A stretch of 64,000 nt of DNA. Origin: Escherichia coli (GTDB lineage Bacteria; Pseudomonadota; Gammaproteobacteria; Enterobacterales; Enterobacteriaceae). The notes beneath the pieces are model-generated. The model had not been told where the DNA came from and did no database searches. It worked only from the letters and a program-made list of their open reading frames with translations. The translations under genes were made by a program, and so were the position numbers. The stretch is from assembly GCF_003334815.1 (NCBI RefSeq), contig NZ_QOWO01000004.1; one strand, written 5' to 3'. This document shows positions 29,482 to 46,607 of this stretch, piece after piece; the stretch's first letter is position 1, and each line of letters opens with the position of its first letter.

Positions 29482-30417
29482 TTACTTAAACCATCCAATA
29501 ATAAACAAAACTTTAAAAAGCACATCATCAATGAACTTAACTCTTTTTACATGCCCGGAAAAAACATATCTCAATCTTTTCACAAGGCTTGCTTGAGACT
29601 CTACAAAACCATGACTTATTTCGTATCCTGCTTCTTTCTTATGCATTAAACAATATATGGAGACTAAATCCATTTGAAGCGATAGCAAATGCCTTCCATT
29701 TGACTTATATTTTTTGATCTGTTTAAATCTATTACACAGAATGTTCTTAAGACCAGACTTTATACCTACAACATTATTATCATGCTGCCTATAACTTAGG
29801 TAGCTATTATGGTCATATATTAGGTGGCCAAATGTTCTTGCCAATATTAAAAAAAACCAATCATGCATAACAATACGATTGGCAATATTGACTTCATTAA
29901 TATCCAAGTATAATTTACGTAAAGATTGGTTAAAGACAAAAGTACAACCTGGAGCACAATTCTCAATCAAAATATTGTTTAAAGAAAAATCACTCTGAGA
30001 ATTATAACGACCAATATGATTTAACTCTTTGTCAACATAGTTATATGAGGAGCAATATCCTATTGCTATATCTTGCTTATATTTAATAATCTCAGTTGTA
30101 GCTGCAATCAATTTAAGAGGTTCCCATATATCATCCTGATCGCAAAAAGCGTAATAGTCATAGTCTCCAACATTCTCAACCAACCACAAAAAACTGGCTA
30201 TGACACCAATGTTATCACCCTCATACAAAAATATAGAATCATCCTTTGATATATACTCTTTAATAATTTCACATGTTGAATCAACTGAACCATCATCTCT
30301 TATATGAATATGTAAATCGAAATCTCTATAGCATTTTGTTATTGAGTCCAATTGTTCGCTAATATACTTCTCCCCATTATAACTCGATAATAAAACAGCC
30401 ATGCTTTTTAATTTCAT
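29482..30417 (-). CDS. glycosyltransferase, GT2 family (rhamnosyltransferase-like)
   Basis: N-terminal AVLLSSYNGEKYI...DDGS motif of GT-A enzymes; start placed at the ATG (MKLKSMAVLL) downstream of the tool GTG start. Confidence 0.75.
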   Translation of the reverse strand: MKLKSMAVLLSSYNGEKYISEQLDSITKCYRDFDLHIHIRDDGSVDSTCEIIKEYISKDDSIFLYEGDNIGVIASFLWLVENVGDYDYYAFCDQDDIWEPLKLIAATTEIIKYKQDIAIGYCSSYNYVDKELNHIGRYNSQSDFSLNNILIENCAPGCTFVFNQSLRKLYLDINEVNIANRIVMHDWFFLILARTFGHLIYDHNSYLSYRQHDNNVVGIKSGLKNILCNRFKQIKKYKSNGRHLLSLQMDLVSIYCLMHKKEAGYEISHGFVESQASLVKRLRYVFSGHVKRVKFIDDVLFKVLFIIGWFK

Positions 30418-30483
30418 TTTCCCCACATTATTAATCCCGATTTTGATTTATATACATTAATAGCGCCAAACAATAGCCATAAT

Positions 30484-30595
30484 CGCATATAGCATATAGC
30501 ATATAGCATATAGCATATAGCATATAGCATATAGCATATAGCATATAGCATATAGCATATAGCATATAGCATATAGCATATAGCATATAGCATAT
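30484..30595. repeat. perfect heptanucleotide tandem repeat (AGCATAT), 15 perfect units plus 1 imperfect
   Basis: Counted directly: units begin at 30491 and recur every 7 nt to 30595; lies between the wzy stop (30604-30606) and the downstream GT2 start (30417). Confidence 0.95.
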
Positions 30596-30603
30596 TATTA
30601 TGC

Positions 30604-31647
30604 TTACAATGTCGAATACTCATTTAAAATCTGAAGGTGATATATATTAATATAAAACATAATAAAGCATATTCCTATAACCGCTAGTTTTGCAAACTTT
30701 ATTTGTCTAAAAAGAAGGGGCAAGGATGGTAGTAGAATTATTTCACTAATGGCAAAAAACTCACTAATGCGCAAAGAGAATACTGGCATGGAAGATAATA
30801 TAATAAAAGCAAGCGGAGATAATGAATAAATTTTAATAATAAGCACCTGTTCACGAGGTAAGATTCTTTTCCGTGAAAAAACAAAAGATAATCCAACTAT
30901 AAATAAATGCAATATTTGCATTACAGAAAAAATATTGACAGGAACAAAGTCAGCACCTTGACTTTGGCTAATATAGTCATTAAATTTATATTGTACATAA
31001 GAAGAAGGAATATATTTGAATAATGTTAAGAAATTTATACCGATATAAGAACAACAATATGCCACAATTAATGTCAAATAATAAATAAAGATATATCTTG
31101 AGCTAACTGCATTAGTATCAAATGCGAGAACAATAAAAAACAGCAACGCAGTAATATGAAATGTTGATGCGAGCAAAATCAACATCACAAAACTTATGAT
31201 ATTTTTGTTTTTTGCATATTGTAACACTGAATATAATACTATGGCCCCCGCAACTCCAGCTCGAATCTGAGTCAGATCTTGCAGTATAAATGTATTTGAG
31301 TAATACACAAGTACAGATAGCAGTAAAAATGGTGAGGATTTTTTAATTATATTATATTTTAAGGAGACAGATATCAGCGCAAAAACAATAAAAACAAAAT
31401 AATATCCATTAAATATATTAACAGCAATAAAACTTATTAATTTAAATGATGGCTCTATTGGATAAAATAAGTTATTTGCTGACTCAAAAATTAGCGTAAT
31501 ATAGTTTGTATAATCCCTATCGACAAACTCGCTTCGGAATGCACACATTAAAAGTAAAAAAAACATTATTACTTTTAACACATATTTCTGATTCGGCAGA
31601 AAAGATAGAATAGAAATGCATATAAATATCGTGAGGTATAAAAACAT
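30604..31647 (-). CDS. wzy: O-antigen polymerase Wzy (EpsG-like), 347 aa
   Basis: Highly hydrophobic polytopic protein with about 10 TM segments and no glycosyltransferase motifs, inside an O-antigen cluster. Confidence 0.75.
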   Translation of the reverse strand: MFLYLTIFICISILSFLPNQKYVLKVIMFFLLLMCAFRSEFVDRDYTNYITLIFESANNLFYPIEPSFKLISFIAVNIFNGYYFVFIVFALISVSLKYNIIKKSSPFLLLSVLVYYSNTFILQDLTQIRAGVAGAIVLYSVLQYAKNKNIISFVMLILLASTFHITALLFFIVLAFDTNAVSSRYIFIYYLTLIVAYCCSYIGINFLTLFKYIPSSYVQYKFNDYISQSQGADFVPVNIFSVMQILHLFIVGLSFVFSRKRILPREQVLIIKIYSLSPLAFIILSSMPVFSLRISEFFAISEIILLPSLPLLFRQIKFAKLAVIGICFIMFYINIYHLQILNEYSTL

Positions 31648-31725
31648 TACAATCTCATTTCATGATTAGGTTAAATGGCCATTATAAATTAATGTTTAGT
31701 TTAGTTAACTTTACCAATACGTTTA

Positions 31726-32646
31726 TCAAGAATTTGAGAAGTAACCTTTTCCCATTTTACCTACAACACCATCTTTTATTGCAGTCGCTAACAGCTTGAT
31801 TTTTTTTAACTTTGAAGAAGAATTAAGAGTATGGACAACAATAAATAACGGTAACCGGGTAAATAAATACAATCGATGATTAAATGAAAGTTTATCTTTC
31901 AGAATCAGATAAATTGAATTCCTGACTATAAAATAATGCCTAAAATCACTATGCATTATCACATTTTTACCCAATACTCGTTTTGCTTCATTTCCAATAT
32001 TGTGCATCATGACAATATCAGGTATAATATAAGATTGTAATCCCATCTTCTTCGCGCGTTCGCACCATTCGATATCAACGAAATCTATAAACAACTCCTC
32101 ATCCATAAGCCCGATTTTTTGCAGTACCTCCATTCGAATCAAGCTCCCTGAAGAAATTAGAAAATCTGTTTCAAGTGGATGAACACTATGACACAGCTTG
32201 ATTTTATAAAATGGTCTAATATGAATTGCACCTGTTATCTTTCCAGTTTTTTCATCCTTAAAGGCCGGACCTAAAACAGCAACTTGTTTTCCACTATTTA
32301 GAAGTACACGCTCATTAATTAGCAATGTTTTAATCATTTCTTCCGGAACGATACTGTCTTGATCCAAAAATAAAATATGAGATGCTTTCGATTTTTTGGC
32401 ATAATGAATTCCAATGTTCTGAGCTTTTGCAATGCCTAGATTGTAATTTAGTCGATAATGTTCAATTTTTTCTCCATACGACTCAAACTCAGAATCAGGT
32501 ATTTTTAAATTAGACTCATCTGTGTTGTCGATAAGAATAACCTTGTCTACTTGCATAATTATACTTTTCAGTAATCCATGTATGCGTACAATTTCAGGTC
32601 TGAAAAGGACCACTACTGCAATAATACATTTATCTTGTTCTGTCAT
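31726..32646 (-). CDS. glycosyltransferase, GT2 family (306 aa)
   Basis: GT-A fold signatures including an FLDQDS motif; likely rhamnosyltransferase type. Confidence 0.75.
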   Translation of the reverse strand: MTEQDKCIIAVVVLFRPEIVRIHGLLKSIIMQVDKVILIDNTDESNLKIPDSEFESYGEKIEHYRLNYNLGIAKAQNIGIHYAKKSKASHILFLDQDSIVPEEMIKTLLINERVLLNSGKQVAVLGPAFKDEKTGKITGAIHIRPFYKIKLCHSVHPLETDFLISSGSLIRMEVLQKIGLMDEELFIDFVDIEWCERAKKMGLQSYIIPDIVMMHNIGNEAKRVLGKNVIMHSDFRHYFIVRNSIYLILKDKLSFNHRLYLFTRLPLFIVVHTLNSSSKLKKIKLLATAIKDGVVGKMGKGYFSNS

Positions 32647-32671
32647 GTTTTACCTCAGGGCAAGGTTACTA

Positions 32672-33762
32672 AAGCCCGCGCCCCGCAAGGACTGACGCGA
32701 GCTAGTCTCTGCCATAGATGTTCTTCTCATCTTACGTGTAAACTCTGTCTTAGATACTTTATGCTTCTTCAAAATATTAAGGCGATATGTCTTATGAATT
32801 ATGCCTGGATATAATTCTTATGCATTTCCTCTTCTTATTTTGCTGTCATCTTCATTCATTGCCACATCCAGACACCAGTGCAACTTACTCTCTTGGTGCC
32901 AGTGGTTTCGAATCGCTGATATAATATCTGACCGTCATTTCTGGCTCCTTCTTTTGTTCTGCTATTTTTTACCGAAAGTAGTCTGCCACGCAAAATTTTT
33001 TCAGTCCTTTTCATTCAAATGTGAAATCAATAATTTCATTAGGAATATCTAAACAATATGAAGACGGATTTTTTCTCTGTCGCGACTCTTTCAGTAATTA
33101 CGTAACTGTCATGCTTTGGATTACTTAATTCTTTCAGAAGAAAATTTACTCAAAGGCTTTATTAATCCGCCCCTGATTTCCTTTTACTGCGAATAAATAA
33201 TCGACTCCCTGTTTTTGTATCTTTTCTGCAAAATCATTCTGGCACCCCAGCGCATCAGTTGTAATAATTTTTTTTAATATCTAAATGTTAATTAGTTGAG
33301 GGATAGCTGTAATCTCAGTGGATTTCTCATCTGTCTTGATCTGTCAGAGAACAAGACTGAGCATTGTTGAGAACGCTCTAATGACATGAATCGCTTCTTT
33401 GCGGCGAGTTTTTTCATAAGAGTACCGGAGCGTTTTTCGAACTATAGCAATGACGTCTTTTTCATTTGACGAATGGAAATCCCTCATCCAGTTAATAATG
33501 CACTCGTGAAATTTTGCAGGAGTGATACATGATACAATTCTGGCAATGGTAACGAGAACAGGAATACCATTTTCTAAATCACTATATTACTTAAAAAAAC
33601 AAAATATGTCTCACCAAATCCTCTATATCTTCCGAACCTTCTGTACCAAAAATGACGACACAAATAGTCAACAGTAGTATATATGACAATTTATGTTTCC
33701 CTTTTCAGGCTTGTCTGTAATCGGGGATAATAGAAATATATTCCATCAATTTTTAGTACCAT
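32672..33762 (-). pseudogene. H-repeat (ISAs1-family) transposase, near full-length but inactivated by frameshifts and stops
   Basis: Minus-strand pieces in different frames match the ISAs1/H-rpt transposase along its length: N-terminal [18 protein letters not shown] and [32 protein letters not shown], middle [34 protein letters not shown]-terminal segment shared with 27893-28155. Confidence 0.75.
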
Positions 33763-33995
33763 TCTGCTCCCCTTATTTTAGCAAGAAGCATTTAAATATA
33801 TATAAGCTATGAAAAACAGTTTAAGTAATGAGGAACACCTCAATTATTGAGCATAAAATGCGAACTATTTACTACAAAAAAGCAGCGTTACGTGATCTTT
33901 CCCTGGGAGACGAACCATTATTTTTTCTATCGGAACTATAATCTTTAATATTTCAGAAAATAAGTTAATAGTCACAATAAGCCTTATATAATATA

Positions 33996-35069
33996 TCAAT
34001 TTTCAAATTCCGTATTGGCACCTTTAAAAATATTTATCAATATTACTTTGGATTCTTCGGTTTGAGATTGAAAATGTGCCAGCACTCTATAATTATTCTC
34101 AACTTTTGTGTATAATTCTTCCATTTTAAGAGGACTACAAAGCTCATCAACTTTAATAAATGAATAGCCTAACGAATTGAAATCACCTATATCAGGAGAT
34201 TTAACAACAGGAACAACACCACATTCAAGGTATTCAATTAATTTTGTCGGGCAGGCAACTCTATTTACAACTATGTCATCTCTTAAAACAAACCCCAAAT
34301 GACATTTAGCCATAACGTTAATTACATCCTCTTTTGGCAATGAATCAACTATTATATCAGTAGCATTAAAACAATTTGCAATTCTACTCTTGAATTCATA
34401 AGTTGAATTTTGTGGGAGAAAAAAATTGAATTTGATATTTTTATTATATGTCCGTTTACTTTCCTCTATCATCAAATCAATATTTTGCCAAGCTTGCATG
34501 CCGCCTGCATAAATGAATTCAAACATATTTGAATTCCATTTGTTCTGATCTACATGGATCTTGTTCTTTTCAAAAATCGGCAATACGATAGATCTTTTGT
34601 CCAAACAGATATGGTATTTATCTTCATAAAACTTTTTCATTGATGAAGTAACATGTATTAATTTAAAACACTTTTGTATTGACATCCTCTCGATTATGTT
34701 ATAAACGAATGCATTTGCTCTTTTACCAAGGAAAATCATTTCCTCAGGAACTACCCCGTGTATATCGAGAATGATCTTTTTATAATCACCAAAAGGAAAA
34801 ATTTTCAACATATTATATACTGAGTGAACATATATTATTGTAGCTTTCTTTAAATATTTAGTTATCGTTAGATTATGTAGAAAATAATTTAGGCTCTCTA
34901 CTTTGCAATTATCGTAAACAGAGATTTTTCTTTTTTTATTTTTTTTAAATGATATATTTAAATAAACCCTCTCCTCATTTTTTGTCAAAGAATCTATTGC
35001 AGCAATTCTTTGAAACATACCATCACGAACATTCTCTGCTGTCGGAAAATCTGCTATAAACAAAATCAT
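33996..35069 (-). CDS. glycosyltransferase (GT-B-like C-terminal domain), 357 aa
   Basis: C-terminal PTKLIEYLECGVVPVV resembles the nucleotide-sugar-binding region of GT4-type enzymes; directly downstream of the 2-epimerase gene. Confidence 0.6.
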   Translation of the reverse strand: MILFIADFPTAENVRDGMFQRIAAIDSLTKNEERVYLNISFKKNKKRKISVYDNCKVESLNYFLHNLTITKYLKKATIIYVHSVYNMLKIFPFGDYKKIILDIHGVVPEEMIFLGKRANAFVYNIIERMSIQKCFKLIHVTSSMKKFYEDKYHICLDKRSIVLPIFEKNKIHVDQNKWNSNMFEFIYAGGMQAWQNIDLMIEESKRTYNKNIKFNFFLPQNSTYEFKSRIANCFNATDIIVDSLPKEDVINVMAKCHLGFVLRDDIVVNRVACPTKLIEYLECGVVPVVKSPDIGDFNSLGYSFIKVDELCSPLKMEELYTKVENNYRVLAHFQSQTEESKVILINIFKGANTEFEN

Positions 35070-35134
35070 ATTACACCACTAATCATATTTCAATGCATTT
35101 ATTAAAATTGCTGATGATATTAATAATCAAAATA

Positions 35135-36271
35135 TTATTTGTTTAAATTATACCAATCAGCCATTATATCTATTATTCGTTTAGATGTTTGACCATCACC
35201 GTATGGATTAGAAGCAGTTGACATTTTTTCATATGCGCCTTTATCGGTCAGCAATAGGTCTAATTCATTAAATATTTTATTTTTATCAGTACCTACTAGT
35301 CTGACCGTACCAGCTGCAACAGCTTCCGGTCGCTCTGTAGTGTTTCTTGTAACTAGTACAGGTTTTCCTAAAGATGGTGCTTCTTCTTGTATACCACCGG
35401 AATCAGTCACAATGATATATGCCTTGTCCATTAAATAAACGAATTGCAAATACTCTAATGGTTCGATAAGGTAGATATTACTTATGCCGCTTAGTATGTC
35501 TTTTACCGGTTTCCGAACTGACGGATTAAGATGTACCGGATACACAAAATTATAATCTTTGAATTTCAATGCTGCGTCACGAATTGCGAAACATATATTA
35601 TCAAAACCAATCCCAAAGTTTTCTCTTCTATGACCTGTTATTAATACAATTCCATTAGCTTTGACATCGAATGGTAGAGTTTTCGCTATTTGTATCTGTA
35701 ATTCTGGCCGTGAACGGATTTTGCTAACAATTGCCATAAGTGCATCAATAACCGTATTACCGACAATATGAATATTTTGTTCAGCTACATTTTCTTTTAA
35801 CAAATTTAATTTTGAGGTCTCTGTTGGAGCAAAGTGCAAATCAGTGATAGCCGCCGTAAGTTTACGATTCCCTTCTTCTGGCCAAGGCGAGTATAAGTCT
35901 CCAGTACGGAGACCTGCTTCTACATGACCGATGCTTACTTGATTATAATATGCAGCAAGGGACGCAGCTAAAGTAGTTGTGGTATCCCCATGAACAAGAA
36001 TCATATCGGGTTTATCTGCTGAAAAGATCACATTTAGCTTGTATAAGATAATGCTAGTCAGCGATACAAGTGTTTGTCCCGGCTTCATTACATTTAAATC
36101 GTAGTCCGGTTTAATTTGGAAAAGTTCTAAAACTTGATCGAGCATTTCACGGTGCTGGCCCGTCACACAAACCTTGCAGCAAAATCTATTATCGCCCTTT
36201 AATTTTTCTATTAAGGGAGCCATTTTTATTGCTTCTGGTCGAGTACCAAATATTAAAAATATCTTTTTCAT
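35135..36271 (-). CDS. mnaA: UDP-N-acetylglucosamine 2-epimerase (non-hydrolysing; WecB/MnaA type), 378 aa
   Basis: MKKIFLIFGTRPEAIKMAPL N-terminus and ...HVEAGLRT... motif of the UDP-GlcNAc 2-epimerase family. Confidence 0.85.
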   Translation of the reverse strand: MKKIFLIFGTRPEAIKMAPLIEKLKGDNRFCCKVCVTGQHREMLDQVLELFQIKPDYDLNVMKPGQTLVSLTSIILYKLNVIFSADKPDMILVHGDTTTTLAASLAAYYNQVSIGHVEAGLRTGDLYSPWPEEGNRKLTAAITDLHFAPTETSKLNLLKENVAEQNIHIVGNTVIDALMAIVSKIRSRPELQIQIAKTLPFDVKANGIVLITGHRRENFGIGFDNICFAIRDAALKFKDYNFVYPVHLNPSVRKPVKDILSGISNIYLIEPLEYLQFVYLMDKAYIIVTDSGGIQEEAPSLGKPVLVTRNTTERPEAVAAGTVRLVGTDKNKIFNELDLLLTDKGAYEKMSTASNPYGDGQTSKRIIDIMADWYNLNK

Positions 36272-36282
36272 GTTGAATTTCT

Positions 36283-37560
36283 TTAAATAAGATGTTGATT
36301 TTTGACTTTACTTATATTACTTAGCAACAGTATGCATAAAAGTAGTTCTCCACTTGATATTGCTACCGCTGCACCATAGCCATTATATAAACCGGCAAGT
36401 AATAAAAGAAAAATTACCGTAAAAATAGCAGAATAAATGATACTGCAACTATACATTTTGGCACAACCTGCAGCACTCAGGATTTGAATACCAAGAACAT
36501 TATTTAGAACGCCAAGACACATCCATGGAGCCAATAAGAAGGCAAAAGCCAGAGTTTCTTGTGGTAAATTTACTCTAGGATATATGATCCACCATGCAAG
36601 TATAAAAATCAAACTCACGATCAGACCTAATAGAACTAAGGGACGTCCAGTGCGGATAGCTGACGACATGCCGACATCAAATGATTCCTTAAACTTCCTA
36701 CAACTATGCGGATAAAGTGACTGCGTCAATGGCGAAAATAATGAAACTATAGCTTTAGCTATTCGCTCTACGACTGCATAAATACCTACAACAGATGGTG
36801 TATGGTATATACCAAGAATAAAAACAGCACTGTTTGTTAGCAGTGTTGAGGCAAGTGTTGCTAAAAAATAATCCCATCCTTCCTTAAGGGATACCATCAT
36901 AAATTTTATAGTAGGTAGCATAAAATTTATATATTTTTTTTGAATGATATATATATTAGCATAAACTCCACCAATAAGCACTGGAAACGCTTGGGATAAA
37001 ATAGCAGTACTAATATCACTTTCATTACGAACGAAATATAATACACAGATACATGAGATTATTCGAGATAATATATTAATGACAGCAACTATTTTTAGTT
37101 TTTCTATCCCCTGATAGAACCATAAAGGGTACATCGAATTAGAAAATGCCCATATGAAGGCACTTACAATTATCGTATAATAATTGCTATCATTAACAAA
37201 GACCCTGCATACAATATCTATAATACTAAATAGCAGAAATGTTAAAACAAATTTAACAAAATTAATTGCATAGTATATACGTGATATTTGACAAATATTA
37301 TCTCTACTTTGAGATATAGCTCGACTGGCACTGTAAGCAAATCCATAATCAATGACAACCTGGAAATACGCCATCAATACCAATGCAAATGCATATTTAC
37401 CAAAGCCATCAATGCCCAAGGTTGTTATAAGATGACCTAGCACGATAATTGGTGAAAGATACGCAACACCTTGTGTGCAAAGTAAATATCCAGCATTATA
37501 TATTACATTTTTGTATTCTTTATTTATCAACAAAGAAACCTCTTGCTTAATTTTACTCAC
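36283..37560 (-). CDS. wzx: O-unit flippase Wzx (MOP superfamily), 425 aa
   Basis: About 12 predicted TM segments; position immediately after rmlC. Confidence 0.8.
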   Translation of the reverse strand: MSKIKQEVSLLINKEYKNVIYNAGYLLCTQGVAYLSPIIVLGHLITTLGIDGFGKYAFALVLMAYFQVVIDYGFAYSASRAISQSRDNICQISRIYYAINFVKFVLTFLLFSIIDIVCRVFVNDSNYYTIIVSAFIWAFSNSMYPLWFYQGIEKLKIVAVINILSRIISCICVLYFVRNESDISTAILSQAFPVLIGGVYANIYIIQKKYINFMLPTIKFMMVSLKEGWDYFLATLASTLLTNSAVFILGIYHTPSVVGIYAVVERIAKAIVSLFSPLTQSLYPHSCRKFKESFDVGMSSAIRTGRPLVLLGLIVSLIFILAWWIIYPRVNLPQETLAFAFLLAPWMCLGVLNNVLGIQILSAAGCAKMYSCSIIYSAIFTVIFLLLLAGLYNGYGAAVAISSGELLLCILLLSNISKVKNQHLI

Positions 37561-38090
37561 CTGTAAAGAAATGGTTGCTTAGAGTCTTTCTCTGATACAA
37601 TAGGCTCATTAATTAGTGGCCAATCTATTTTTATATCTGGATCATGCCAGGCCAAACCACGATCACTGGTTGGAGCATAATAATTCGTCGTCTTATACAA
37701 AAACTCTGCCGTTTCACTCAGCACCAAAAACCCATGCGCAAATCCTTCTGGTATCCACAACTGGCGCTTATTCTCAGCAGATAAATTCACCCCAACCCAT
37801 TTGCCAAAAGTTGGTGACGATTTACGAATATCAACCGCTACGTCAAAAACTTCACCAACAACGCAGCGCACCAACTTTCCTTGTGCATAAGGTTCTAACT
37901 GATAATGCAGTCCGCGTAAAACACCTTTACAAGACTTCGAATGGTTATCCTGGACAAATTCAACTTTGCGGCCTACAGCTTCCTCAAAAACCTTCTGGTT
38001 AAAGCTCTCGAAAAAGAAACCGCGCTCGTCACCAAAAACTTTCGGTTCGAAAATTAATACGTCTGGAATCTCTGTTTTAATTACGTTCAT
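37557..38090 (-). CDS. rmlC: dTDP-4-dehydrorhamnose 3,5-epimerase
   Basis: Cupin-fold RmlC motifs (RGLHYQ, WIPEGFAHGF). Confidence 0.9.
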   Translation of the reverse strand: MNVIKTEIPDVLIFEPKVFGDERGFFFESFNQKVFEEAVGRKVEFVQDNHSKSCKGVLRGLHYQLEPYAQGKLVRCVVGEVFDVAVDIRKSSPTFGKWVGVNLSAENKRQLWIPEGFAHGFLVLSETAEFLYKTTNYYAPTSDRGLAWHDPDIKIDWPLINEPIVSEKDSKQPFLYR

Positions 38091-38094
38091 TTTA

Positions 38095-38973
38095 TTAATA
38101 ACCTTTAATCATTTTTAGCAGGTACTGACCATAAGCATTTTTCTTCAACGGTTCAGCTAATATTTTCACCTGCTCAGCATTGATAAACCCTTTACGGTAA
38201 GCAATTTCTTCTGGACAGGAAACTTTCAACCCTTGACGCTCTTCAATTGTAGCAATGAAGTTGCTTGCCTCAATCAGGCTTTGATGTGTCCCCGTGTCTA
38301 ACCATGCATATCCACGTCCCATCATGGCAACAGATAAACGCCCTTGTTCCATGTAGATACGGTTAATATCGGTAATTTCCAGTTCACCGCGGGCAGAAGG
38401 CTTAAGATTTTTCGCCATTTCTACAACGTCGTTATCATAGAAATAAAGCCCAGTTACCGCATAATTACTTTTTGGCTGTAGCGGTTTTTCTTCCAGGCTA
38501 ATTGCCGTACCGTTTTTATCAAACTCAACGACACCATAGCGTTCAGGATCATTAACGTGATAGGCAAACACCGTTGCACCACTTTCTTTGTTAACAGCGG
38601 CATCCATTAACTTCGGCAGATCGTGACCGTAAAAAATATTATCACCAAGAACCAAAGCACAATCATCACCACCGATAAATTCTTCACCGATGATAAATGC
38701 TTGCGCAAGACCATCTGGACTTGGTTGCACTTTGTACTGAAGATTCAGGCCCCACTGGCTCCCGTCACCCAACAGTTGTTGAAAACGAGGAGTATCCTGT
38801 GGCGTACTTATAATTAGAATATCGCGAATACCCGCCAACATCAGTGTAGAGAGCGGATAATAGATCATCGGTTTATCATAAATAGGTAATAGCTGTTTAC
38901 TGACAGCCATAGTCACAGGATAAAGACGTGTACCAGAACCACCCGCTAAAATAATACCTTTACGCGTTTTCAT
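38095..38973 (-). CDS. rmlA: glucose-1-phosphate thymidylyltransferase
   Basis: [14 protein letters not shown] nucleotidyltransferase motif; 292 aa. Confidence 0.95.
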
Positions 38974-39030
38974 TCCATCATTCCTTTTAATTCATCTTGT
39001 TCCACCATCACGAACAAGATACAAAAACTA

Positions 39031-39930
39031 TTAAATTGCTGTAGTCGTAAATAATTCGTTGAGCATGCGTTTCACACCAACCTGCCAGTCAGGCAAAACA
39101 AGCGCAAAGTTCTGCTGAAATTTTTCTGTATTAAGGCGAGAGTTATGCGGACGACGAGCTGGTGTAGGATAGGCTGTTGTTGATACTGCGTTGAGCTTGT
39201 TGAGTGCAAGGGGAATGCCTGCTTTGCGCGCCTCTTCAAAAACCAGCGCAGCATAATCGTGCCAGGTTGTGGTACCACTGGCTACCAGATGGTACAAGCC
39301 TGCGACTTCTGGTTTATTCAGTGCCACACGAATTGCATGTGCCGTACAATCAGCCAGCAGTTCAGCACCTGTTGGCGCACCAAACTGATCATTAATAACG
39401 GCTAATTCTTCACGCTCTTTTGCCAGACGCAACATCGTTTTGGCGAAGTTATTTCCTTTACCTGCATAGACCCAGCTGGTACGGAAAATTAGGTGCTTCG
39501 CACAATGCTCTTGTAATGCTTTTTCTCCAGCTAACTTGGTTTCACCGTAAACATTTAGCGGTGCGGTTGCATCCGCCTCCTGCCATGGTATTTCACCGGT
39601 CCCCGGAAATACGTAGTCAGTTGAGTAATGAATTACCCAGGCCCCAACTTCATTAGCCGCTTTTGCAATTGATTCAACGCTGGTCGCATTGAGTAATTGT
39701 GCAAATTCGGGTTCTGACTCAGCCTTATCTACTGCGGTATGAGCCGCAGCATTAACAATAACATCAGGGCGAATTTTTTTGACGGTTTCAGCTACACCTT
39801 CAGGATTACTAAAATCACCACAATAATCAGTGGAGTGAACATCAAGAGCAATCAAATTACCCAAAGGTGCCAGAGCACGCTGTAGTTCCCAACCGACCTG
39901 CCCTGTTTTGCCGAAAAGGAGAATATTCAT
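39031..39930 (-). CDS. rmlD: dTDP-4-dehydrorhamnose reductase
   Basis: 299 aa short-chain reductase; [13 protein letters not shown]. Confidence 0.95.
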   Translation of the reverse strand: MNILLFGKTGQVGWELQRALAPLGNLIALDVHSTDYCGDFSNPEGVAETVKKIRPDVIVNAAAHTAVDKAESEPEFAQLLNATSVESIAKAANEVGAWVIHYSTDYVFPGTGEIPWQEADATAPLNVYGETKLAGEKALQEHCAKHLIFRTSWVYAGKGNNFAKTMLRLAKEREELAVINDQFGAPTGAELLADCTAHAIRVALNKPEVAGLYHLVASGTTTWHDYAALVFEEARKAGIPLALNKLNAVSTTAYPTPARRPHNSRLNTEKFQQNFALVLPDWQVGVKRMLNELFTTTAI

Positions 39931-41015
39931 TACTGGCGGCCCTCATAGTTCTGTTCAATCCACGATTGATAAGCACCACTTTTCACATTATCAACCCATT
40001 TTGTATTGGACAGGTACCATTCCACCGTTTTACGAATCCCGCTCTCAAACGTTTCCTGCGGTTTCCAGCCCAATTCGCGGCTAATCTTCTCTGCATCAAT
40101 CGCATAACGGCGATCGTGTCCCGGGCGATCGGCAACATAAGTAATTTGCTCACGGTAAGATTTCTCTTTCGGTACAATCTCATCCAACAAATCACAAATA
40201 GTGAGCACTACATCGATGTTTTTCTTTTCGTTGTGTCCACCAATGTTATAAGTTTCACCCGCTTTACCTTCGGTTACGACGATATATAACGCACGCGCAT
40301 GATCTTCAACATACAGCCAGTCACGAATTTGATCCCCTTTGCCATAAATAGGTAATGCCTTACCTTCCAGAGCATTAAGAATTACTAGTGGAATCAATTT
40401 TTCCGGAAAGTGATAAGGACCGTAGTTATTCGAACAGTTAGTCACAATGGTCGGTAAACCATAGGTACGTTTCCACGCACGGACTAAATGATCGCTGGAT
40501 GCTTTTGATGCGGAATAAGGACTACTAGGCGCGTAAGCTGTCGTCTCAGTAAAGAGGGGTAATTGTTCTTTATTATTTACTTCGTCAGGATGAGGCAGAT
40601 CGCCATAGACTTCGTCAGTAGAAATATGATGAAAACGGAAGCTATTTTTCTTGTCGCCATCAAGAGCAGACCAGTAATTGCGAGCCGCTTCCAAAAGGAC
40701 ATAAGTACCAACAATATTGGTTTCAATAAATGCCGCAGGGCCTGTAATTGAACGATCCACATGGCTTTCAGCAGCCAGGTGCATCACTGCATCCGGCTGA
40801 TGCTGAGCAAAAATCCGCGCCATTGCAGCAGCATCGCAAATATCCGCATGTTCAAAAACATAGCGTTCAGAATCAGAAACATCAGCAAGTGATTCCAGGT
40901 TTCCGGCGTACGTTAATTTATCGACATTAACAACACTATCCTGCGTATTATTTATAATGTGACGAACTACTGCAGAACCAATAAATCCTGCGCCACCAGT
41001 AACAAGTATCTTCAC
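39930..41015 (-). CDS. rmlB: dTDP-glucose 4,6-dehydratase
   Basis: 361 aa; [14 protein letters not shown]ossmann motif and YSASK catalytic motif. Confidence 0.95.
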
Positions 41016-41089: not shown

Positions 41090-41101
41090 CACGCTACCGC
41101 C
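41090..41101 (-). promoter_or_regulatory. ops element (GGCGGTAGCGTG) within the JUMPstart sequence upstream of rmlB
   Basis: Exact 12-nt ops motif on the minus strand about 75 nt upstream of the rmlB start; this is the RfaH recruitment site class. Confidence 0.85.
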
Positions 41102-46357: not shown

Positions 46358-46418
46358 TTTTTCCTCATAAATTTGATGCCAGGTGAGGCTGTGTTTGTTG
46401 TGTTCATTGCCGTTTTTT

Positions 46419-46607
46419 GCCTGATGCGACGCTGGCGCGTCTTATCAGGCCTACAAGACCCGAGCACAGAACCGTAGACCGGATAAGGCGTTCACGCCGC
46501 ATCCGGCATTCAGTGCCTGATGCGACGCTGACGCGTCTTATCAGGCCTACAGGTCCCGAGCACAGAACCGTAGGATGGATAAGGCGTTTTACGCCGCATC
46601 CGGCAAC
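46419..46607. repeat. REP/BIME cluster (at least two REP units) between wzxC and wcaK
   Basis: Repeated gcctgatgcgacgctggcgcgtcttatcaggcctac and ggataaggcgtt(c/t)acgccgcatccggca units. Confidence 0.85.

Follow-up and report, generated by a model that had tools for sequence, protein, structure and literature searches.

Between the O-antigen polymerase gene wzy and a glycosyltransferase gene, inside the O-antigen cluster of an Escherichia coli contig, lies a perfect heptanucleotide tandem array that is a genuine hypermutable VNTR. It is real, differs in length among isolates in steps of whole units, and has an ancestral proto-repeat in related clusters; among 24 distinct assemblies with the cluster, we found 14 alleles ranging from 3 to ~39 units. 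The reading that we favor, and hold to be reasonably probable, is that of a near-neutral slipped-strand microsatellite in the untranslated gap of an operon of the RfaH/ops type. Its mechanism, involving slippage and mismatch repair, transcription through the array, and its near-neutrality are what we infer from these observations. As a VNTR locus the array is new, and its position is both unusual and of practical relevance.

Sequence and setting of the array

Our analysis covered a 64-kb stretch of DNA (the window), which is the first 64 kb of draft contig QOWO01000004.1 (GCA_003334815.1); three loci of that contig match it exactly at the same coordinates. Tandem Repeats Finder detected the array (Table 1) with a period of 7, 15.9 copies, 100% matches, 0% indels, and a score of 222; the runner-up short-period array in the window scored 42. 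Read on the plus strand, the letters are GCATAT followed by 15 copies of AGCATAT, corresponding to a unit of GCATATA on this strand and of TATATGC (UAUAUGC in RNA) on the transcribed minus strand. A three-unit probe gave 14 overlapping matches in the array compared to 0 in 100 dinucleotide-preserving shuffles.

A prior sequence-only reading had reported a perfect 7-mer array between wzy and a glycosyltransferase gene, which both Tandem Repeats Finder and the raw sequence confirm. It had placed the array at 30484–30595; the right end is correct, but the left end starts one base too far to the left, as position 30484 is a C. The distances given to the neighboring genes are accurate. The TAA stop of wzy lies at 30606–30604 and the array ends at 30595, leaving the 8 nt that had been noted, and the "about 70 nt" to the next glycosyltransferase start is 67 nt when measured to the ATG called by PGAP. 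The array is also intergenic as described, and gain or loss of units leaves the frames of wzy and the glycosyltransferase gene intact because the array is outside both.

Table 1. Coordinates in the window of the array, its spacers, and associated features
Feature	Position	Strand	Basis
wzy, O-antigen polymerase, EpsG family, PF14897, 347 aa, upstream of the array	31647..30604	-	ORF, Pfam
8-nt unique spacer, wzy stop to array, GCATAATA on the transcribed strand	30596..30603	-	sequence
Heptanucleotide VNTR, (TATATGC)n	30485..30595	-	Tandem Repeats Finder, direct reading, shuffles, 24 assemblies
67-nt unique spacer, array to glycosyltransferase ATG	30418..30484	-	sequence
GT2-family glycosyltransferase, 311 aa from ATG, PF00535, downstream of the array	29482..30417	-	PGAP annotation of identical loci, Pfam
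69-aa ORF (YMLYAIC)n across the array; TGA overlaps the glycosyltransferase ATG (ATGA)	30414..30623	-	ORF list
ops element, GGCGGTAGCGTG, upstream of rfbB	41090..41101	-	sole exact match in the window

The short spacer 3′ of wzy is unchanged in 24/24 assemblies, where it served as the left anchor. The longer one contains a Shine–Dalgarno-like GGGGA 4 nt before the glycosyltransferase ATG and is conserved in O10 genomes, which do not have the array. PGAP assigns the glycosyltransferase start to 30417–30415, and an alternative GTG is present at 30426; NCBIfam GT2 matches to this protein are weak. The homologue of wzy in O10 genomes, with ~90% nucleotide identity, is annotated as "O10 family O-antigen polymerase". 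The wzy product encoded in the window has the same sequence as UniProt A0A1S6PTG4 ("O-antigen polymerase"), an entry that may derive from the study of the O1 non-A strain A47.

The window contains yee genes, his, wzzB–ugd–gnd, the O-antigen cluster, galF, and colanic acid genes. The O-antigen cluster occupies positions 26191–41015 on the minus strand. Its 5′ part comprises rfbBDAC, wzx, wecB/mnaA, a gene for a 357-aa protein, and then an ISAs1 pseudogene; the middle holds a rhamnosyltransferase-type GT2 gene, wzy, the array, GT2, and GT4; and an ISAs1 fragment and an LTA-synthase/sulfatase-family gene form the end, followed by gnd. The GT2–wzy–GT2–GT4 module and the last gene share 87–94% nucleotide identity with the O10 cluster. 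The 5′ half differs from O10, and no other part of the cluster resembles it. The entire cluster is AT-rich (28–36% GC throughout), and the composition of the array is not special in this respect.

From galF to gnd, the annotated gene content and order match the description of the O1 non-A A47 cluster (PMC5293828). Delannoy et al. (2017) described the cluster of strain A47 (KY115226) as a three-module mosaic, consisting of an O1-variant module, an O10-like module with a wzy 89% identical to that of O10, and an O2 wekS-like last gene (PMC5293828). The cluster in the window appears to fit this mosaic type, as judged against the published description of KY115226: the two have in common the order rmlBDAC–wzx–mnaA/wecB–GT, four O10-like genes including wzy, a wekS-like gene, and, by that description, a wzy module ~89–94% identical to O10. 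In the main text of the A47 paper, the words "repeat", "tandem", and "ISAs1" are absent (PMC5293828). One partial member of the cluster is labeled "Escherichia coli O1". Papers with "OgN" names were of no help in assigning the O genotype, as they matched O100-series names and not O10. With its exact wzy protein on 127 publicly available contigs and in 206 assembly-index blocks, the A47-type O genotype is not rare.

An ISAs1 transposase pseudogene (~32669–33746) and an ISAs1 fragment (~28015–28158), both on the minus strand, are located at the two mosaic module junctions, which suggests that the O-antigen mosaic may have been put together by IS elements. ISAs1 copies adjoin the LTA-synthase-family gene in the O10 cluster, too. 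This gene, the last of the cluster (26191–27819, minus strand), belongs to the LTA synthase/sulfatase family, is wekS-like, and shows weak similarity to phosphoglycerol transferases. It has been called as 465, 498, 502, 539, and 542 aa in different isolates, and its start or 5′ region seems to vary between them. In GCA_000460715.1, an IS1 element (locus L019, 5028–5725) interrupts the GT4 glycosyltransferase gene that follows the array, and this isolate is probably a rough (O-antigen-negative) variant as a result.

ops/JUMPStart confers RfaH dependence on an operon. The window contains 1 exact match to the ops element, compared to 0.04 expected by chance. Because this single element lies upstream of rfbB, the whole cluster would be transcribed as one RfaH-type unit, with the array read through as part of it.

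Variation among isolates and origin of the repeat

The locus is present at ≥98% identity in 9 of 5,426 complete E. coli genomes, and its O10 version (~91%) is present in 18. Exact protein matches to wzy, GT2, and the rhamnosyltransferase brought in further assemblies. In the resulting 24 assemblies, which are of mixed quality, we counted 3, 3, 4, 4, 4, 5, 7, 7, 7, 8, 8, 9, 11, 11, 15, 15, 16, 17, 17, 21, 21, 23, 32, and ~39 full units; the values for G5, N18-04097, and GCA_050625915.1 come from error-prone long-read assemblies, and some others come from short-read drafts. Arrays that exceed the reads are under-sampled in short-read drafts, and another three draft contigs terminate within the array or right at its edge (among the contigs that break here are L020/L040 in GCA_030001115.1 and L041 in GCA_050546345.1).

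The arrays are perfect in 22/24 assemblies. A single variant unit, TGTATGC, occurs in the array of strain 2018-02-2CC, and three aberrant units occur in that of N18-04097, an error-rich long-read assembly. In every assembly but N18-04097, the array length is exactly 5 + 7n nt. Two records of strain 2018-02-2CC, both consensus assemblies, have spans of the same length.

Differences in copy number are found between otherwise identical sequences. In seven other assemblies, which carry 7–21 units, 2.1 kb of flanking sequence is the same as in the window. Alleles of 3, 4, and 5 units show zero substitutions among them in 5.4 kb of flanks, as do alleles of 15 and 7 units when compared with each other. 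Because some alleles thus share 2–5 kb of identical flanks, the array gains and loses whole units, single-unit steps included, far faster than its flanks acquire substitutions. The strain-to-strain variation envisaged in the sequence-only reading, which had called for a comparison of copy number across related isolates, is borne out by this comparison; one copy number common to all related isolates was not observed in the 24 assemblies. The locus has the features of a VNTR, namely head-to-tail units of high identity, whole-unit differences between conserved flanks, and a proto-repeat.

This proto-repeat is seen in the O10 genomes (n = 18), which share the module at ~91% identity. The orthologous site, between the same flanks, contains a degenerate two-unit sequence, AATATGTTATATATGA; the proto-repeat at the array position, ATATGTTATATATGA, can be written ATATGTT-ATATATG-A. 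The gap between wzy and the glycosyltransferase gene is 88 nt in O10 and ~100 to 360 nt in clusters with arrays. The two units in O10 reveal where the repeat came from and in which direction it changed, by expansion within the A47-type lineage. As for the earlier proposal of a recent expansion by slipped-strand mispairing, whole-unit change and the O10 proto-repeat both speak for the expansion, with slippage as the presumed mechanism.

We propose that slipped-strand mispairing enlarged a degenerate two-unit proto-repeat in the AT-rich gap between wzy and the glycosyltransferase gene of an O10-like module. E. coli mismatch repair corrects 7-nt loops inefficiently. Because a 7-nt loop is too large for efficient correction, such loops would escape repair, and units would come and go at a much higher rate than that of point mutation. 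The array would be transcribed within a long ops/RfaH-type mRNA, outside any real reading frame, and the downstream gene would retain its own 67-nt leader and ribosome-binding site. For these reasons, drift in copy number may be nearly neutral, altering expression of the downstream glycosyltransferases slightly at most, and the array may persist because length changes in this gap cost little. The lack of constraint in the 24 assemblies is what suggests neutrality. Arguing against it, a longer untranslated gap could change polarity, mRNA decay, or ribosome traffic, and the long imperfect self-hairpin predicted at high copy number might be an RNase target.

The same heptamer array (≥4 units) also occurs elsewhere, as an exact four-unit probe found 12 stretches among 100,044 species genomes. 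These TATATGC stretches (loci L042–L053; e.g., Vibrio sagamiensis, L050, 2465–2548) are intergenic, contain 4–12 units, and belong to unrelated bacteria. A conserved element outside this locus was rejected as an interpretation, the 12 arrays being short, sporadic in unrelated taxa, and not in a common gene context.

Alternative explanations and tests for a function

The strongest competitor to near-neutral drift, which we nevertheless consider unlikely, is that the array is a contingency SSR whose length sets the output of GT2, GT4, and the wekS-like gene relative to Wzy. Length would take effect by way of polarity or of the processing or stability of the RNA between the cistrons. A parallel would be the (ATCTTTC)n SSR in the 5′-UTR of hmw1A/hmw2A of Haemophilus influenzae, in which more repeats mean lower expression (PMC12721329; PMC2651432). 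In that system, a G-rich arm pairs with ten repeats to form a hairpin that is cleaved by RNase III and sets adhesin expression (PMC12721329). Like the hmw repeat, the array has a 7-base unit that would be transcribed and untranslated, is located ~70–100 nt directly upstream of a gene for a surface structure (here a surface polysaccharide), and is highly mutable, with a copy range of 3 to ~39 similar to the 11–63 of hmw (PMC12721329). LPS genes are, moreover, classic SSR targets in other species (PMC2651432). Self-pairing of the array RNA is predicted as well, in the form of 6-bp A–U/G·U helices separated by C·C mismatches, with ~−1.85 kcal/mol per unit, so that stability rises with n.

Several features distinguish the array from the hmw repeat, however. 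The hmw promoter lies just upstream of its repeat, whereas the array separates two cistrons of a long operon; a scan for sigma-70-like promoters detected none within the array, beside it, or elsewhere between wzy and the glycosyltransferase gene, and the region contains fewer promoter-like sites than its shuffles (13 vs 17.6), leading us to reject an internal promoter. A structured RNA was likewise rejected: no Rfam family matches the array region, its RNA folds with a minimum free energy weaker than that of dinucleotide shuffles (z = +1.79), and no complementary non-repeat arm comparable to the hmw G-rich arm is present within ±200 nt of the array. In hmw, the natural minimum is 11 units in 102 loci (PMC12721329), but alleles of the array go down to 3, and in the 24 assemblies no length was favored and no lower limit was seen.

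The predicted effect on translation initiation is also flat. The glycosyltransferase gene keeps its leader and Shine–Dalgarno sequence, and in a ViennaRNA partition function model of 16 repeat numbers, the mean unpaired probability of the ribosome-binding region (−14 to +5) is 0.34–0.40 for 0–39 units, with no trend, which speaks weakly against an hmw-like inverse relation of expression to repeat number. We therefore rejected an effect of the array on this ribosome-binding site. The O10 module, in addition, works without any array, and SSR-based switches are missing from the E. coli examples in a review of phase variation (PMC11868660). Taken with the absence of a promoter, the weak fold, and the lack of a length preference, these predictions do not support the modulation of the downstream GT2 by copy number that had been suggested from the sequence. 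A more specific version, in which the SSR tunes the Wzy:glycosyltransferase ratio via RNA processing or polarity and hence the amount or chain-length pattern of O-antigen, seems to us more doubtful still.

Rho termination would offer little further scope for an effect of length. The primary binding site of Rho favors YC dinucleotides, and YC-free RNA is a poor site for Rho loading. By reading of the sequence, the unit UAUAUGC contains no YC; the array would thus add little Rho-binding potential, and the operon also carries ops.

Established SSR contingency loci include those of LPS/LOS genes, such as the lic genes of H. influenzae with their tetranucleotide repeats (PMC2651432). The array is similar in being a hypermutable repeat tied to surface-glycan genes. 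In lic-type loci, however, the repeats lie within frames or between promoter elements and act as on/off switches, whereas the array lies outside genes and conserved frames, has no promoter match, and shows no modulo-3 pattern. The 24 assemblies show no frame or length constraint on the array.

An element acting at the level of DNA, with phased TATA-rich units serving as an internal promoter, as a platform for H-NS or another protein, or as an unwinding or bent segment, is a very improbable explanation. The units do contain TGCTATAT, a weak extended −10-like string, three of them span 21 bp or two helical turns, and the cluster is AT-rich. The promoter scan is nevertheless empty in the array, no known binding motif was identified in it, and the whole cluster is equally AT-rich.

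We give even less credence to a translated repeat, in which initiation at the AUG at 30623 or at the AUG in each unit would produce a (YMLYAIC)n peptide coupled to the glycosyltransferase, with copy number modulo 3 as the switch. Three ORFs cross the array, which is stop-free in all frames and has one AUG per unit, and the 69-aa ORF among them ends as ATGA on the glycosyltransferase start. This ORF begins at an AUG inside the end of wzy and is closed after 13 codons in O10, and we found no Shine–Dalgarno sequence before any of its AUGs on reading the sequence. The copy numbers of the 24 assemblies divide 8/7/9 among the residues modulo 3, so the frame is not conserved, and with ≥3 units, AUGs are present in all frames, such that copy number modulo 3 would be no switch for internal starts. 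On these grounds, we rejected the ORF as a gene or translational coupler and judge it to be a by-product of the stop-free repeat.

Finally, the idea of an assembly or sequencing artefact, raised by the draft status of the window's WGS contig and by the draft contigs that break at the array, carries next to no weight and can be set aside, as 24 independent assemblies, among them closed long-read chromosomes of isolates from several countries and hosts, have the array at one common site, and as arrays of 26–33 nt are shorter than a final assembly k-mer and so are not collapse products.

Relation to known VNTRs and relevance

MLVA typing of E. coli O157 and Salmonella already makes use of VNTRs with many copies of a 6–7-bp unit. 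The statement in the sequence-only reading that such an array is very unusual for an enterobacterial chromosome is fair for E. coli K-12-like genomes. To our knowledge, the locus is absent from published MLVA schemes, and the literature searched yielded no relevant account of a VNTR or heptanucleotide repeat located in the O-antigen cluster of E. coli. Like the VNTRs of this type, which include the STTR loci of Salmonella Typhimurium (PMC5183578), the array consists of short perfect head-to-tail units in up to tens of copies, has many alleles in close isolates, and turns over units much faster than it acquires point mutations; most such loci have no demonstrated function. It differs from them in being confined to one O-antigen genotype rather than species-wide and in its place within the O-antigen operon, where it separates wzy from a glycosyltransferase gene.

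The array is one of few long, perfect, highly polymorphic microsatellites of the E. coli chromosome, and it resides in a serogroup-defining locus. For O1 non-A (A47-type) strains, it provides a ready sub-typing marker of high resolution. Short-read assemblies break or are truncated at it, inside the O-antigen cluster, which can disturb in silico serotyping. Should copy number affect the downstream glycosyltransferases, E. coli would be added to the species in which SSRs vary LPS, although the evidence does not point in this direction. Such an effect would give the O1 non-A lineage heritable, rapidly reversible surface variation under phage or immune pressure and would be a rare case of SSR contingency in E. 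coli, acting between cistrons and not at a promoter or in a frame. A demonstrated regulatory role would be noteworthy because the E. coli examples in the review of phase variation are all invertible-element or methylation switches, none of them SSR-based (PMC11868660).

Two further features of the window lie outside the O-antigen cluster. At 46418–46605, between wcaK and wzxC in the colanic acid cluster, a 96-bp unit is repeated 1.9 times with 91% identity and looks like REP/BIME palindromic units. A 3.3-kb segment at 634–3903, in the yeeS–cbtA prophage-remnant region, is missing from strain 2018-02-2CC; it carries IS21-family istA/istB (1900–3557) and a fragment of an IS110-family transposase gene (1173–1562).
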